Shown in pieces: positions 24,633 through 29,639 of a stretch of 64,000 nt of DNA; within the stretch, counting starts at the first letter, position 1; each line of letters starts with the position of its first letter. This DNA comes from Promethearchaeota archaeon Loki_b32 (lineage in GTDB: Archaea > Asgardarchaeota > Lokiarchaeia > Sigyniarchaeales > SOKP01). The position numbers were made by a program, and so were the translations under genes. The notes beneath the pieces were generated by a model that ran no database searches, was not told where the DNA came from, and saw only the letters and a list, made by a program, of their open reading frames with translations. The stretch lies in contig NJBH01000006.1 of the NCBI GenBank assembly GCA_005223125.1, positions 46,316-110,315 of the forward strand, given 5' to 3'.

Positions 24633-24947
24633 TTATTCAATATTTATTTCAATACTATGAAATTCGGGCTCTTTGAACGGTACTTCAATCTTTAAAAGTC
24701 CATTTTTATAAATTGCTTTTGTTTCTTCTGGTTTAATTAGACAGCAAACACCATAGGAACCTATATAAACAGTGTCTTCAGTTTCTCCTTTAATGAAAAA
24801 ACTGTCATCATGCATTTTAAGCTTAATTGATTCTTTCTCTACTCCAGGCAGTTGTATTTCAATTTTATAAATGTTTTGTTCATCATCAGCCCAAGAACAC
24901 ACTTCTGGTGACATTAAATACTTTTCTTCTTCTTTTACTTCAGACAT
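24633..24947 (-). CDS. hsp20: Hsp20/alpha-crystallin small heat-shock protein
   Basis: alpha-crystallin domain YKIEIQLPGVEKESIKLKMHDDSFFIKGE...YKNGLLKIEVP; the internal ATG (MSEVKEEE) is preferred over the track's TTG at 25001. Confidence 0.8.
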   Translation of the reverse strand: MSEVKEEEKYLMSPEVCSWADDEQNIYKIEIQLPGVEKESIKLKMHDDSFFIKGETEDTVYIGSYGVCCLIKPEETKAIYKNGLLKIEVPFKEPEFHSIEINIE

Positions 24948-25130
24948 ATTTTTCACTTCAAAGTTAAAATTATATTTAGATTTAATTATTACTTCAACCA
25001 AAATAACCGATTTAAAAGTTCTTTCTATGGAATATTAAAGAAGGAGTGAATTTTCCTTAAAAATTAAATTGAAAATTTGTTTTTCCTTTAATTTAAAAAT
25101 TTTTAAAAAATATTGAATCGAGGGACGCTT

Positions 25131-26042
25131 TTATTGAGGATTAAGTGTAGGAGATCTAGCTGACATAAGTTCTAATATTTTCTCCCAATATTCTTTTATT
25201 TCCCAGTTTTGTTTTGTTTTTATTTTTTCAGAGACTTCCTTTAATAATTCCCTAATTTTAAGTGAATCAAAATAAGTTAAAATTGGGGCAATCACAGATA
25301 ACATATATTGTTTTTCTCCATATCTTTCATTTTTATCCGGAAATGAATCAAAAAATAGATAACCTTTTTTATCAATATTCTCAATATTAAGTAAAATACT
25401 TTGAGCTTTTGTGATTTTATCGTGTCCATAAATCGAAGTTGCAGCGTGGAACAATTGCTTGCCAATAGTGTTAATAGATAGGGTACAATTTTCTTCAGAG
25501 GGATAACTCTGTTTTAATATTGGTCCTGCAACATCATCCCAATATACCATTAATAAACATAATGATGGTTGATCTTTATTAATAATTGATGGATGCATTT
25601 CTATATTCAAGGATGAGAATATTTGTTTAATTTCCTCATCAATTTGATTGGATTTTTTATATCGAGCAATTTTACCAGAGATTGAAGCTAATAAATCTTC
25701 CTTTTTAAAAGGTTTTGTTATATAATCATCTACTCCTAACATTTTACCCAATCGAATATCTTCAGGAGTAGATTTTGCGGTTAGAAATAAGAAAGGAATA
25801 CGACTCAATTTTGAGTTAGATGAAACAGCAGCAAAAAACTCATAGCCATTCATGACTGGCATCATTATATCGCTTATTATTATATCAGGAACTTTCTCTA
25901 ATGTCAAAAGCATTTTAAGTGCTGTTTTACCACTAATTGCTGTGATTATATTGTAGTCACTTGCTTCAAGAATAAGTTTTAGATTAAATAAAATATCCTC
26001 GTTATCATCAACAACCATTAACAAGGGCTTTGAATCTGACAT
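25131..26042 (-). CDS. response regulator: receiver domain plus an uncharacterised ~160-aa C-terminal domain
   Basis: VVDDNEDI, phospho-acceptor context IIISDIMMP, LTAKS, ITKPF; the C-terminal half has no HTH or enzymatic motif. Confidence 0.8.
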   Translation of the reverse strand: MSDSKPLLMVVDDNEDILFNLKLILEASDYNIITAISGKTALKMLLTLEKVPDIIISDIMMPVMNGYEFFAAVSSNSKLSRIPFLFLTAKSTPEDIRLGKMLGVDDYITKPFKKEDLLASISGKIARYKKSNQIDEEIKQIFSSLNIEMHPSIINKDQPSLCLLMVYWDDVAGPILKQSYPSEENCTLSINTIGKQLFHAATSIYGHDKITKAQSILLNIENIDKKGYLFFDSFPDKNERYGEKQYMLSVIAPILTYFDSLKIRELLKEVSEKIKTKQNWEIKEYWEKILELMSARSPTLNPQ

Positions 26043-26115: not shown

Positions 26116-28638
26116 TTAGTATGGTAGAAATAGATGAAATGTCGTTCCTTTCCCTAATTCACTCTCCACAATGATACTTCCTTTATGAGCATCAATTATA
26201 TCTTTTGCGATTGCTAATCCTAATCCTGTGCCAGCAATTTCAATTACATTGCTTGAACGGAAAAATCGTTCAAAAATGTGAGGTAAATCTTCCTTGGAGA
26301 TCCCACGACCACTATCTTTAAATTGTAAGAGAACTCCTGATTTTCCATTTAAATTATATTTACCCTGGTAATTATCAATAGATTTTATTTTTACTTTTGA
26401 ATATTCTTCTGAATATTTAATAGTATTATCGATAATAATTCGGAAAACTTGATCAATCCTTTTTGGATCCCCTCTTAAAAGAATGTTATCATCCACATTA
26501 ACTTCAAAATCTATATTCTTTTCCTGACCTATTGGTTCCATGAGATATAAGATTTCATTAATAATCTCTAAAGGTTTATATTCTTTCCATTCCAATTCTA
26601 ATCGATTTTCATCAATTCTTGAAATTGTTAATATATCCTCTGCTAAATCATTAAGTAGATGAATATTTTTTGAGATTCCATCCATTAATTTCTCTTCTAA
26701 ATCTTCGTTGAGAACATCTTTATGTTTAGTTAAATATTCCATCGACATTAATAAGACTGTAATTGGAGTCCGTAATTCATGTGAAACAGTTGAAATTAAT
26801 TGTGATAATCTCTCTTCTGCTCTTTTACGTTCTGTTATATCCAATCCATAAATATTTACATAATCCACATTTTTTACGGGAGTAACAACCAAAGTGTAAG
26901 TTCGACCATTTAAATTTACTTCAAGATCTATATTCACTTTTTTACTTAGAACTCTATTAATAGAGTCCTTTAATATTTTAGGGGTTGGACTTCCTTCTTC
27001 AATATTGAATAGCTCTCTACCCATTTTATTAGTGTAGATTACCAGTTTATTATTTATTCGCAAAACGGGGTTAGGATTTTCAGATGGGAACTTTGATAAA
27101 TTTCTAATTTTTTCTTCAGCTTTTTTTCTTTCAGTGATGTCTCTAAATGTCGATTGAAAAAATATCCTTCCAGATAATTTTATAACTTTTGCTGTTACAA
27201 AAACATCTATTATTTCTCCATTTTTTCTACGGAATTTTGTTTCAAAATCATCTCTACCTTCTCTCAATAATTTTTCTACATGAGCTTTTGTCTCTTCTGT
27301 GTTTTCTGTCATATCATAGTCATTTATTTGTAATTTTTGGAATTCATCACGCGAATATCCTAAAATATTACATACTACATCGTTAAATTCAACTGCTCTG
27401 AAAGTTTCAGGATCTAAAATAACAATACCATCAGGAAACTGTTCAAAAGTTGTACGATAACGAAGTTCAGCTTCTTGAAGTAGTGATTCAGATTTTATTT
27501 TCTCAGTAATATCTGTGGCAACACTAAGAAGAGCGGAATATTTTGCATCAACATCTTCTATTGGTTGTTCAACTATCCAATATGTCTTTCTACCAGCATG
27601 TAAATCAAAAGTTCGTTGATATGCTCGACTGGTCCCATTATTAATTGATTCACGATTACTAATTAAAAATTCATTAGCAATTTTTTCAGGGAACACATCA
27701 TGTAGAGTTTTTCCAATGAAATCTTCTGGATTTCCACCTAATTCCTCTGCAGCCTTTTTATTTACTAATAAATAGGTGCCTTTTTTATCAATCATTGTAA
27801 TACCTGCTCCAGAATGCTTAATAATATTTCTTAGTTCTAATTCACTTCTCTTGATTTTTCTAAATAATAGATCAAATGGTTCCTCGATTCCAATTTGAAT
27901 AATAGCTTTATATAAAAGGAAAAATGCGATTATTTTAAAGATATGTCCAATAAAATTAGGAAATTCATAAGCCCCGAAATAAAATGTGAACGCTAATTCG
28001 GCGATCATCGTTGCTATGATTGAGGTGATTATAAGATAGAAGACTTTTTTATCAAAATCCACTCTATTTTTAATAATAATCAAAAGACAAGTTAAAAGTA
28101 TGAAATTTATAACATATTCACTTACAATTTTAAACGACGTTAATCCAATACCATCAATATAACAAATTGGAAAAGAATTTGTAAAAATAAGTACTATTAA
28201 AATTATTGATATTATCAAATAAAAAATAGGAAGAAAAATTGATTTTACACTCCTTTTAATCATTAATGAAGCGAAGACACAAGATCCTGCTTGAAGATAT
28301 CTGGCTGCTATCCATAAAGATGTCGCAAGATTTGTCCCCCAATCCTCAAAAATCGGCAAACCAGGATAAGCAAGAGTATGAATTACGTCAATAATTCCGA
28401 TAAAAAGTGAGGATACTCCAAGAATTGAAAAAAAGGAATTTTTCATATATTTACGGGAGTTCCACCCAACTAAAAATACGCCTCCTGCAATTACAATACT
28501 AAATATCTCCGCGATACTATGAAATAGTAAGTAATCATAGAGACTTGTAAGGTAGACTAATAAGATTCCTATAAGAAGAACAGAAATTTCTATAATTTCT
28601 AGATTCAGTTTATGTGAAGATTTATGTTCTTTTGACAT
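26116..28638 (-). CDS. membrane sensor histidine kinase (multi-TM N-terminus, several PAS domains, HisKA, HATPase)
   Basis: ~250-aa polytopic N-terminus; three PAS-like blocks each ending in a DITE(R/K)K-type segment (TDITEKIK, RDITERKK, LDITERKR); H-box VSHELRTPIT; GTGLGLAIAKDI. Confidence 0.85.
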   Translation of the reverse strand: MSKEHKSSHKLNLEIIEISVLLIGILLVYLTSLYDYLLFHSIAEIFSIVIAGGVFLVGWNSRKYMKNSFFSILGVSSLFIGIIDVIHTLAYPGLPIFEDWGTNLATSLWIAARYLQAGSCVFASLMIKRSVKSIFLPIFYLIISIILIVLIFTNSFPICYIDGIGLTSFKIVSEYVINFILLTCLLIIIKNRVDFDKKVFYLIITSIIATMIAELAFTFYFGAYEFPNFIGHIFKIIAFFLLYKAIIQIGIEEPFDLLFRKIKRSELELRNIIKHSGAGITMIDKKGTYLLVNKKAAEELGGNPEDFIGKTLHDVFPEKIANEFLISNRESINNGTSRAYQRTFDLHAGRKTYWIVEQPIEDVDAKYSALLSVATDITEKIKSESLLQEAELRYRTTFEQFPDGIVILDPETFRAVEFNDVVCNILGYSRDEFQKLQINDYDMTENTEETKAHVEKLLREGRDDFETKFRRKNGEIIDVFVTAKVIKLSGRIFFQSTFRDITERKKAEEKIRNLSKFPSENPNPVLRINNKLVIYTNKMGRELFNIEEGSPTPKILKDSINRVLSKKVNIDLEVNLNGRTYTLVVTPVKNVDYVNIYGLDITERKRAEERLSQLISTVSHELRTPITVLLMSMEYLTKHKDVLNEDLEEKLMDGISKNIHLLNDLAEDILTISRIDENRLELEWKEYKPLEIINEILYLMEPIGQEKNIDFEVNVDDNILLRGDPKRIDQVFRIIIDNTIKYSEEYSKVKIKSIDNYQGKYNLNGKSGVLLQFKDSGRGISKEDLPHIFERFFRSSNVIEIAGTGLGLAIAKDIIDAHKGSIIVESELGKGTTFHLFLPY

Positions 28639-28712: not shown

Positions 28713-29261
28713 TTAGAAAACTGGAGATTTTTCAAAGAGAGCATATATCGTTGTTTTATATAATGTATAAATAAAACCTGGTGGTATGATATCTTTTATT
28801 TTTATAATAAGTTCATCAATGACCTTTTCAGTTAAATTTCGATCAAATGTTAAATCTGGATCAAATTTATGTAAAAAGATAGAAAAATCAATACCGTTTT
28901 TTATTTCAATTGAGTTTATCACTTTCTTCATGTATTCTAGCGCGATATGATAACGCTTAACGTCTTGGATATCAATTACATATATAATTTTACTTGTTCC
29001 CTTTATATACTTATTAAAATCGTTGAAATAATCATCAAGATACGCTTGCTGACCCCCAAGATCCCAAATAGAATATTTTGAATTTAAGACTTCAAAATCT
29101 TGCACATCAGGACCTTTCGTAGGCATTGGAGTGTTAAAAGCAGAGATACCCTTGATACCCTTCAAACAATTTAATATCGTTGTTTTCCCACTATTATCTA
29201 ATCCAATTAATACAATTTTAATTGAATCGACTCTTGATTCATTGGTTTTTAAAGTTTTCAT
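28713..29261 (-). CDS. Arf/Sar/Rag-like small GTPase
   Basis: G1 GLDNSGKTT (Arf-like GLDxAGKT), G3 WDLGGQ, G4 variant LHKFD. Confidence 0.8.
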   Translation of the reverse strand: MKTLKTNESRVDSIKIVLIGLDNSGKTTILNCLKGIKGISAFNTPMPTKGPDVQDFEVLNSKYSIWDLGGQQAYLDDYFNDFNKYIKGTSKIIYVIDIQDVKRYHIALEYMKKVINSIEIKNGIDFSIFLHKFDPDLTFDRNLTEKVIDELIIKIKDIIPPGFIYTLYKTTIYALFEKSPVF

Positions 29262-29300: not shown

Positions 29301-29639
29301 CTATGTTAATGTATCATGTATATCAACATCTCTTATATCTTTGAATTTCTCTTTATATATTTCAGCTACAAGTGAATTTATTCTGTTAAGCAAATTAAAG
29401 ATACTTAGATTTTTAATTTTGTAGTATTTTATATTGTTTTTTTTCTCATATTCGATGAGATTGTTATCATAAAGCATGTTTAAATGCTTTGAGATAGTTG
29501 ATTGTGATTTATTTAAATTTTTTTTAATTTCTAATGAGCTCTTCTCACTTCCCTTTAAGAGATCTAAAATATCTAATCTTGTAGGATCTCCTATGATCTT
29601 TAGGAACTCAATAACACCTCTTCTAAATTCGCTCATCAA
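29301..29639 (-). CDS. ArsR-family winged-helix regulator
   Basis: LKIIGDPTRLDILDLL...SQSTISKHLNMLYDNNLI. Confidence 0.75.
   Translation of the reverse strand: MMSEFRRGVIEFLKIIGDPTRLDILDLLKGSEKSSLEIKKNLNKSQSTISKHLNMLYDNNLIEYEKKNNIKYYKIKNLSIFNLLNRINSLVAEIYKEKFKDIRDVDIHDTLT

Follow-up and report, generated by a model that had tools for sequence, protein, structure and literature searches.

An Asgard archaeal response regulator with a folliculin-type longin output domain, encoded beside an Arf/Rag-like GTPase: a candidate phosphorylation-gated GTPase-activating protein

We have analysed a stretch of 64,000 nucleotides (nt) from Promethearchaeota archaeon Loki_b32 (contig NJBH01000006.1, positions 46,316-110,315, forward strand; G+C approximately 30%), referred to here as the window, and within it an open reading frame (ORF) of 303 amino acids (aa) that occupies positions 25131-26042 of the minus strand. 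The product of this ORF is a response regulator with a longin of the folliculin (FLCN)/NPRL2/SMCR8 type as its output domain, a combination that we call REC-longin. As judged from its motifs and its gene neighbourhood, the protein is probably a phosphorylation-controlled regulator of the small GTPase encoded near it, most likely as a GTPase-activating protein (GAP).

Direct reading of the sequence showed that the segment 25131-25625 (minus strand), to which a preliminary description of the locus had assigned the output domain, does translate to residues 140-303 and the stop codon of this ORF. The only Pfam domain recognized in the 303-aa protein was REC (PF00072, residues 9-121, E 2.8e-23, 82.6 bits against a cut-off of 30.2), and Pfam and NCBIfam scans of residues 135-303 gave no match. 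The catalytic set of REC is complete, with D12, D13, D58, T88 and K110 all present; D58, the phospho-acceptor, is encoded at 25869-25871, and D13, D58 and K110 are each at least 90% conserved in the alignment of the full-length family. By its residues, then, the protein is a two-component response regulator with an intact receiver. The full-length AlphaFold2 model shows a prolonged alpha5 helix of REC (helix 114-144), which is linked to the longin by a low-confidence tether (145-161), the predicted local distance difference test (pLDDT) values being 55-64 over residues 141-160. The parts of the protein are as follows.

25680..26018, minus strand: REC receiver domain, residues 9-121 (Pfam PF00072)
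25560..25679, minus strand: linker, residues 122-161 (full-length AlphaFold2 model)
25161..25559, minus strand: longin domain of the folliculin/NPRL2/SMCR8 type, residues 162-294 (AlphaFold2, structural search and profile comparison)
25521..25541, minus strand: WD and GP motifs, W168-D169-D170-V-A-G173-P174, in the beta1/beta2 hairpin (conservation and profile alignment)
25323..25325, minus strand: Arg240 in the beta4-beta5 loop, a candidate arginine finger (conservation and transitive alignment)

The window's copy of the output domain was folded by AlphaFold2 on an alignment of 92 domain sequences. The resulting model had a mean pLDDT of 81.7 (79-97 in the core blocks) and a predicted template-modelling score (pTM) of 0.74, and folding of the full-length protein (pLDDT 85.2, pTM 0.75) gave the same result for this domain. 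Strands at residues 162-169 and 173-180 are followed by a helix at 190-205, by strands at 214-220, 225-235 and 243-252, and by helices at 257-275 and 282-294. This order, beta-beta-alpha-beta-beta-beta-alpha-alpha, in which no helix at the N-terminus packs against the sheet, is the topology of longins. The elements that the preliminary description had picked out from hydrophobic periodicity (CLLMVYW, GPILKQSYP, SINTIGKQLFHAATSIYG, SILLNIEN, KGYLFFDSF, YMLSVIAPI and LKIRELLKEVSEKIK) each coincide with an AlphaFold2 element of the same type.

We compared the domain model exhaustively with 48,161 chains of the PDB. The best match was 8yqg, the longin of a Lokiarchaeota Roadblock-Longin protein (Z 12.7, root-mean-square deviation 2.5 A, 126 residues), followed by the Lst4 longin of K. 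lactis (Z 11.9) and by FLCN (Z 11.5), and these three longins align over 123-130 residues at 2.5-3.0 A. Npr2/3, NPRL2, C9orf72/SMCR8, FNIP2, CPLANE, TRAPPC2, sedlin, DENND1A and VAMP7 were found at Z 8-10. Among the 18 matches at Z >=8, which are mostly longins, the top ten are all longins, and the longin matches span residues 31-168 of the model, both C-terminal helices included. Foldseek, proposed beforehand as a check, agreed with this comparison and returned GATOR1, the SEA complex, FLCN-FNIP2, DENND10 and Lst4 at E 3e-5 to 3e-3. The nearest clusters in the ESM Atlas were Heimdall- and Promethearchaeal proteins that carry PF11704 (Folliculin) or PF06218 (NPR2); further neighbours were an archaeal family of longin-GTPase fusions and, among eukaryotic proteins, SMCR8, uDENN domains of the FLCN/SMCR8 type, C9orf72 and Avl9, the neighbours having template-modelling scores of 0.57-0.68. 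Both the topology and the best matches to solved longins thus uphold the longin reading with which the preliminary description had begun. Its label 'uDENN-like' is apt in the sense of a longin of the FLCN/SMCR8 type, but not in the sense of a DENN protein, as the chain stops at residue 303 and has no DENN domain. When the PDB was searched with a sequence profile made from the domain alignment, only designed helical proteins were returned, at E >2.

The output domain represents a conserved family: 310 close homologues of approximately 303 aa were found, and HMMER, run exhaustively, gave 163 representatives after clustering at 50%. The sources of the homologues are metagenome bins of Lokiarchaeota/Promethearchaeota and of Hod-, Thor-, Hermod- and Kariarchaea. 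W168, G173, P174, P181, M247 and Y257 hardly vary within the domain alignment, in which W168 is conserved in 89/92 sequences, D169 in 73/92, G173 in 85/91 and P174 in 84/92; R240 is kept in 67 of 88 family members. G173 and P174 open strand beta2, and this is the position that defines the GP motif of GAP longins (PMC12290439). According to that survey of 2025, a GP motif at the start of beta2 and an arginine finger mark the GAP longins FLCN, NPRL2, SMCR8 and C9orf72, are absent from longins that are not GAPs (TRAPP, DENND, adaptin), and both occur in one class of Asgard proteins, named 'Folliculin/SMCR8 longin'. The same survey describes in C9orf72 an essential WD located five residues ahead of GP (W33-D34...G38-P39), and the W-to-G spacing of the REC-longin family equals this WD-x3-GP arrangement.

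Kinship to folliculin-type longins was examined at the level of profiles. A Pfam Folliculin search of 151 genomes of the phylum found proteins above the curated cut-off in 24 of them, and an alignment of 30 Asgard longin regions that pass the PF11704 cut-off has invariant G, P, D, R and G positions. When the profile of our domain was compared with these PF11704-positive Asgard longins by hhalign, matches of 97.7% and 97.5% were obtained (E 1e-12 and 8e-12, over 130-135 columns), which pair WDDxxGP with FDExxGP and FDSxPDxxxRGG with FxIxDxxARGx; G173-P174 falls on the invariant GP, and R240 on the invariant R85 ('ARG'). Plain HMMER searches with the domain alignment reach four PF11704-positive ORFs directly, at E 8e-9 to 9e-6. 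The profile of the PF11704-positive longins, searched in turn against the PDB with HMMER, matched human FLCN (6ulg_L/6nzd_H) and placed ARG on A163-R164-G165; its helical tail also brought in coiled-coil chains of spike and GCN4, and of all these matches only those to FLCN are meaningful. By a transitive, positional match, R240 is therefore equivalent to the finger position R164 of FLCN, the known catalytic arginine. Because of the profile match to PF11704-positive longins and the equivalence of the motifs, the output domain is, at the sequence level, to be placed as a divergent member of the folliculin/NPRL2-type longins; it lies below the curated cut-offs of PF11704 and PF06218, and significance is reached only by the profile-profile link. 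DUF2536, matched by 7 of the 92 family members at E 0.005 or weaker, was treated as noise. The Pfam Folliculin search of the window's own genome gave one sub-threshold match, on another contig and outside the window. Contig C39 of this genome carries an ORF (L003:1216-1998, plus strand), truncated where the contig ends, that combines a folliculin-type longin (FDENGP...DDEARG) with an Arf-like GTPase (GLDKAGKS, WDLGGQ) in one chain and scores just under the Pfam Folliculin cut-off (20.2 against 23.3 bits).

The response regulator is encoded by the fourth gene of a tight minus-strand string, in which it is preceded by genes for an ArsR-type regulator, a GTPase and a histidine kinase and followed by a gene for Hsp20. 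The kinase gene lies 73 nt upstream of the response regulator gene and the Hsp20 gene 129 nt downstream. The neighbouring genes and the GTPase motifs are the following.

29301..29639, minus strand: ArsR-type helix-turn-helix regulator, first gene of the string (Pfam HTH_5 2.1e-13)
28713..29261, minus strand: Arf/Rag-like small GTPase, 182 aa (Pfam Arf 1.4e-23, Gtr1_RagA 9.6e-15)
29181-29204, minus strand: G1 motif of the GTPase, GLDNSGKT (motif reading)
29049-29066, minus strand: G3 motif of the GTPase, WDLGGQ with Gln71 (motif reading)
28860-28871, minus strand: G4 motif of the GTPase, HKFD (motif reading)
26116..28638, minus strand: membrane histidine kinase, MASE3-PAS-PAS-HisKA-HATPase_c, 840 aa (Pfam)
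24633..25001, minus strand: Hsp20 small heat-shock protein (Pfam HSP20 2.1e-09)

The GTPase has an Arf-type P-loop, a WDLGGQ with the catalytic Gln and a Rag-type HKFD as its G4 motif, all of which are invariant in 52 orthologues. Its nearest solved sequences are the Asgard GTP-binding proteins 8yl2 and 8zla/9m28 (a Lokiarchaeota Rag-like GTPase), followed by Arf1/Arf6. With the catalytic Gln in WDLGGQ and the Rag-type HKFD, the GTPase belongs, by its motifs, to the class on which FLCN and GATOR1 act.

Besides the window, our survey covered 37 REC-longin loci from 34 genomes, and the genes for GTPases, kinases and REC proteins were located in each. An Arf/Rag-like GTPase gene was located within 2.8 kb in 25 of the 38 loci, usually together with a histidine kinase gene. 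Six of the unlinked loci sit on truncated contigs, which leaves 25 of 32 evaluable loci linked to a GTPase; seven loci with full flanks have no GTPase gene. As a background, the window's own genome (4.13 Mb) has 24 such genes, and 3.9% of its positions are no more than 3.5 kb away from one. The linkage was found in at least four different arrangements. The order GTPase, kinase, REC-longin, as in the window, was seen at 16 loci (the window and 15 other genomes) and also in L001 and L002. At four loci a different Gtr1/RagA-like paralogue comes directly after the REC-longin gene or is convergent with it, and among these is a second triad in the window's own genome, on contig C57. The GTPase precedes REC-longin with no kinase between them at two loci, and in a distinct lineage the neighbours of REC-longin are Gtr1/RagA-like proteins of 414-462 aa.

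The arginine at position 240 follows this linkage. R240 is present in 25 of 25 GTPase-linked loci, and at the five loci where another residue takes its place (L, L, K, K or E) no GTPase is nearby. The probability of such a split is approximately 0.003 at face value (1287/501942, by hand calculation), a figure to be read with the five cases going back to perhaps two or three separate events and the GTPase-linked loci being largely orthologues; because of these few events and orthologous loci, the correlation is only suggestive support and not a test. A third REC-longin paralogue of the window's own genome, on contig C24 (C24:190782-191279; L008:8780-9667, minus strand), is one of these five; it has WE in place of WD and Glu in place of Arg240, its neighbours include FAD-oxidase and CCG-domain genes, and no GTPase gene is close by. 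This paralogue may have taken on a different role.

Natural fusions join the same components covalently. Protein P0154 (378 aa; L080:76-1212) consists of a Ras/Roc-family GTPase (residues 10-172) fused to a longin of the REC-longin family (217-372), and since its cluster has 8 members on separate metagenome contigs, an assembly artefact is unlikely. A protein of 1130 aa (L081:1608-5000, minus strand; genome G049, contig C11), with similar ORFs in the sister genomes G065, G109 and G104, is composed of an uncharacterised N-terminus of approximately 150 aa, an Arf-like GTPase (153-314), a longin (302-407), two PAS domains, a GAF domain and a histidine-kinase ATPase; its longin keeps WD and Arg and has GL in place of GP. 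In this second fusion GTPase, longin and kinase are thus joined in one chain. Both fusions point the same way as the operon linkage.

The preliminary description had envisaged a receiver-controlled regulator of the adjacent GTPase, and this predicted function gains support from the neighbourhood, the natural fusions and the conservation of GP and arginine. It had left the choice between a GAP and a guanine nucleotide exchange factor (GEF) open; the motifs favour a GAP, because the GP motif and an arginine at the position of FLCN R164 are conserved. The mechanism that we propose would begin with phosphorylation of Asp58 by the MASE3-PAS kinase. This would alter the state of the receiver, most simply through dimerisation via the extended helix or through release of the tethered longin, and the longin would then bind the GTP form of the neighbouring GTPase and insert Arg240 beside its Gln71, speeding GTP hydrolysis. 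On the whole the protein would be a phosphorylation-gated GAP, by which a prokaryotic sensor input is wired to a GTPase switch of the eukaryotic type. Beyond this, it is a tentative suggestion, which we would sooner doubt than assert, that the operon encodes a cognate pair of a phosphorylation-gated FLCN/NPRL2-type GAP and its Arf/Rag-like client, and so is a living pre-eukaryotic form of the Rag-GAP nutrient module (GATOR1/folliculin), in which a bacterial-style membrane histidine kinase gives the input in place of lysosomal scaffolds and one homodimeric REC-longin chain replaces the heterodimeric complexes.

Several observations weigh against a folliculin-type GAP. The eukaryotic longin GAPs are heterodimers with a non-catalytic longin (FNIP, NPRL3, C9orf72) and carry DENN or other C-terminal domains. 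The archaeal protein ends 9 residues after its last longin helix, with no C-terminal DENN or NPRL2-specific domain, and a second longin gene is absent from the operon. The folliculin link is transitive, and the match of the PF11704-positive longins to FLCN, at E 0.0096, is marginal. A Pfam scan of the 92 family members gave none over any threshold, PF11704 appearing once, at E 0.17. R240 is absent in 21 of the 88 family members, and three loci keep it though no GTPase is nearby. Finally, many of the loci counted as linked or unlinked (25 of 38 linked) are orthologues in related genomes, and the counts overstate their independence.

Platforms built from longin and roadblock domains are, moreover, more often GEFs or scaffolds than GAPs (PMC10933270, PMC13408092), and the REC-longin protein could act on its neighbouring GTPase in such a capacity, or as an effector, after the manner of TRAPP, Mon1-Ccz1, DENN and Ragulator platforms or of RomR/RomX with MglA in Myxococcus. 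The structural matches to DENND1A, TRAPPC2, Mon1-Ccz1 and CPLANE fit such a role, and the neighbourhood and fusions, which support coupling to the GTPase, are silent on its direction. We nevertheless regard this alternative as unlikely, in view of the conservation here of both the GP motif and the arginine at the R164 position, which are specific to GAP longins by the above survey (PMC12290439), of the loss of that arginine only at loci without a linked GTPase gene, and of the best structural matches, which are to longins of GAP complexes. A different possibility is that the longin is a general output for interaction or dimerisation that is independent of GTPases, for example by recruiting Hsp20, and that the linkage reflects co-regulation in a stress operon. 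Longins of SNAREs and of adaptor sigma/mu subunits, which are among the structural matches, work without GTPases (PMC10933270); the seven full-flank loci without a GTPase gene, the conservation of ArsR and Hsp20 genes as neighbours and the pairing of the domain with RsbRD_N and TPR modules are all compatible with this. Yet the linkage survives changes of gene order and of GTPase paralogue, covalent GTPase-longin fusions exist, and the GAP-type residues are conserved and covary with the linkage, all of which make a GTPase-independent output distinctly improbable.

It is very improbable that the C-terminal domain is a PAS/GAF-like sensor of small molecules, or a roadblock, instead of a longin. 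LOV/PAS and GAF chains do occur at low rank in the structural comparison (Z 6.4-6.6; Foldseek probability 0.8-0.9), roadblock chains are found at Z 6.5-7.1, and a roadblock-related output domain, NitrOD3, is known from response regulators of thaumarchaea (PMC5847659). PAS and GAF domains are related alpha/beta sandwiches, and the low scores, together with the lack of any Pfam PAS or GAF match, make them less likely; the predicted fold is neither the PAS/GAF-like nor the all-helical one that the preliminary description had named as contrary to a longin. Identity with Roadblock/LC7 was rejected: the order of elements there is alpha-beta-beta-alpha-beta-beta-beta, with the first helix lying on the sheet and no more than one helix at the C-terminus, whereas our model ends in two helices and has none packed at its N-terminus. 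Moreover, the top ten and most of the Z >=8 matches are longins that cover both C-terminal helices, the order of helices is that of longins, and there is profile homology to folliculin-type longins.

Fusion of longins with two-component modules is, as a kind, already known from the work of Liu et al., which reportedly appeared in Nature in 2021. The accessible portions of their preprint (10.1101/2020.10.19.343400, Fig 5c) present Asgard proteins in which an NPRL2-like longin is fused to domains of two-component systems, and propose that Asgard growth is controlled through two-component systems together with eukaryote-like regulators. These proteins, in which a longin of the NPRL2/FLCN type is joined to REC or histidine-kinase modules, are of the same kind as ours; the same portions describe no conserved operon with an Arf/Rag-like GTPase, no GP/arginine motifs and no link between arginine and neighbourhood. 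The likeness to FLCN (Lst7), NPRL2 (Npr2) and SMCR8/C9orf72 extends to the longin fold (Z 9.8-11.5), to GP at the start of beta2, to the arginine at the R164 position and to a GTPase of the Arf/Rag-like client class, here encoded next to the REC-longin gene. Unlike these proteins and the Asgard Folliculin/SMCR8 longins (PMC12290439), REC-longin is fused to a receiver and lies below the PF11704 cut-off; and in contrast to the eukaryotic Rag system, the neighbouring GTPase is without the C-terminal roadblock domain of Rags, and the GAP role of REC-longin is a predicted one. The best fold match, 8yqg, is a dimeric solved structure from the same archaeal group, but with 10% sequence identity and from a protein that pairs its longin with a roadblock and not with REC; we found no paper on 8yqg or on 'Roadblock-Longin' in the literature searched. 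The MglA/MglB system of Myxococcus, with RomR, FrzX and FrzZ (PMC13408092, PMC9481161), likewise places a prokaryotic GTPase and a regulator of the roadblock/longin superfamily under the control of response regulators, although its receiver proteins and the roadblock GAP MglB are separate chains, whereas REC-longin is a single chain of the folliculin type. REC-NitrOD3 of Thaumarchaeota (PMC5847659) is also an archaeal receiver fused to an output of this superfamily; however, NitrOD3 is related to Roadblock/LC7 (PF03259) and not to longins, and its description mentions no GTPase linkage.

Asgard genomes are rich in small GTPases and in longin and roadblock proteins. Tran et al. (PMC10933270) pointed out that Asgard GTPase genes do not, as a rule, occur in one operon with those for longins or roadblocks, and that the partners are hard to match as a result; the REC-longin/GTPase locus is for this reason a useful exception. 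The partner GTPases of GP-motif Asgard longins are left open in PMC12290439. The window locus and about two dozen like it encode a specific pair of GTPase and regulator side by side, with an on/off handle (phosphorylation of Asp58) and a candidate catalytic residue (Arg240), and thereby reduce the question of the partner to a simple bench experiment. Should the predicted GAP activity be correct, the folliculin/GATOR1 GAP mechanism would be older than eukaryotes and would first have been wired to two-component sensing, and neither a DENN domain nor a second subunit would be indispensable to a longin GAP; should the pair not behave as predicted, the conserved motifs would need another explanation. 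Searches of the literature for Asgard response regulators with small GTPases, and for Asgard folliculin with receiver domains, found nothing, and in the literature searched neither the conserved kinase/REC-longin/GTPase operon with its several independent arrangements, nor the mega-fusion proteins, nor the correlation of R240 with a GTPase neighbour is described.

Some further observations concern the genes that flank the operon and the other architectures in which the domain occurs. The upstream ArsR and downstream Hsp20 genes keep their positions in the distant bins L001 and L002, which are labelled Hod- and Thorarchaeota. Genes for SfsA and for an AsnC-type regulator, as well as a small ferredoxin-like ORF, are likewise found repeatedly on the far side. 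This conservation hints at a regulon connected with stress. ORFs of 640-650 aa (L075:4526-6445, minus strand, with similar ones in L077 and L079) combine TPR repeats with a region of the longin family, which they match at E 1e-12 to 1e-15, and keep WDGPP and DDRG. P0127 (359 aa) consists of RsbRD_N and a longin, and P0169, P0178 and P0266 include hybrid HisKA-HATPase-REC-longin proteins (618 and 821 aa) and an HATPase with a longin (550 aa). Some REC-longin proteins are longer, with 406-443 aa, and extend at the C-terminus into an uncharacterised region of approximately 120 aa. Lastly, a free-standing ORF of 99 aa (L064:4165-4464, plus strand) is located 0.5 kb downstream of a complete REC-longin gene. 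It equals the longin's C-terminal half, beginning with the FD...R loop, and could have arisen by partial duplication or by the splitting of a gene.

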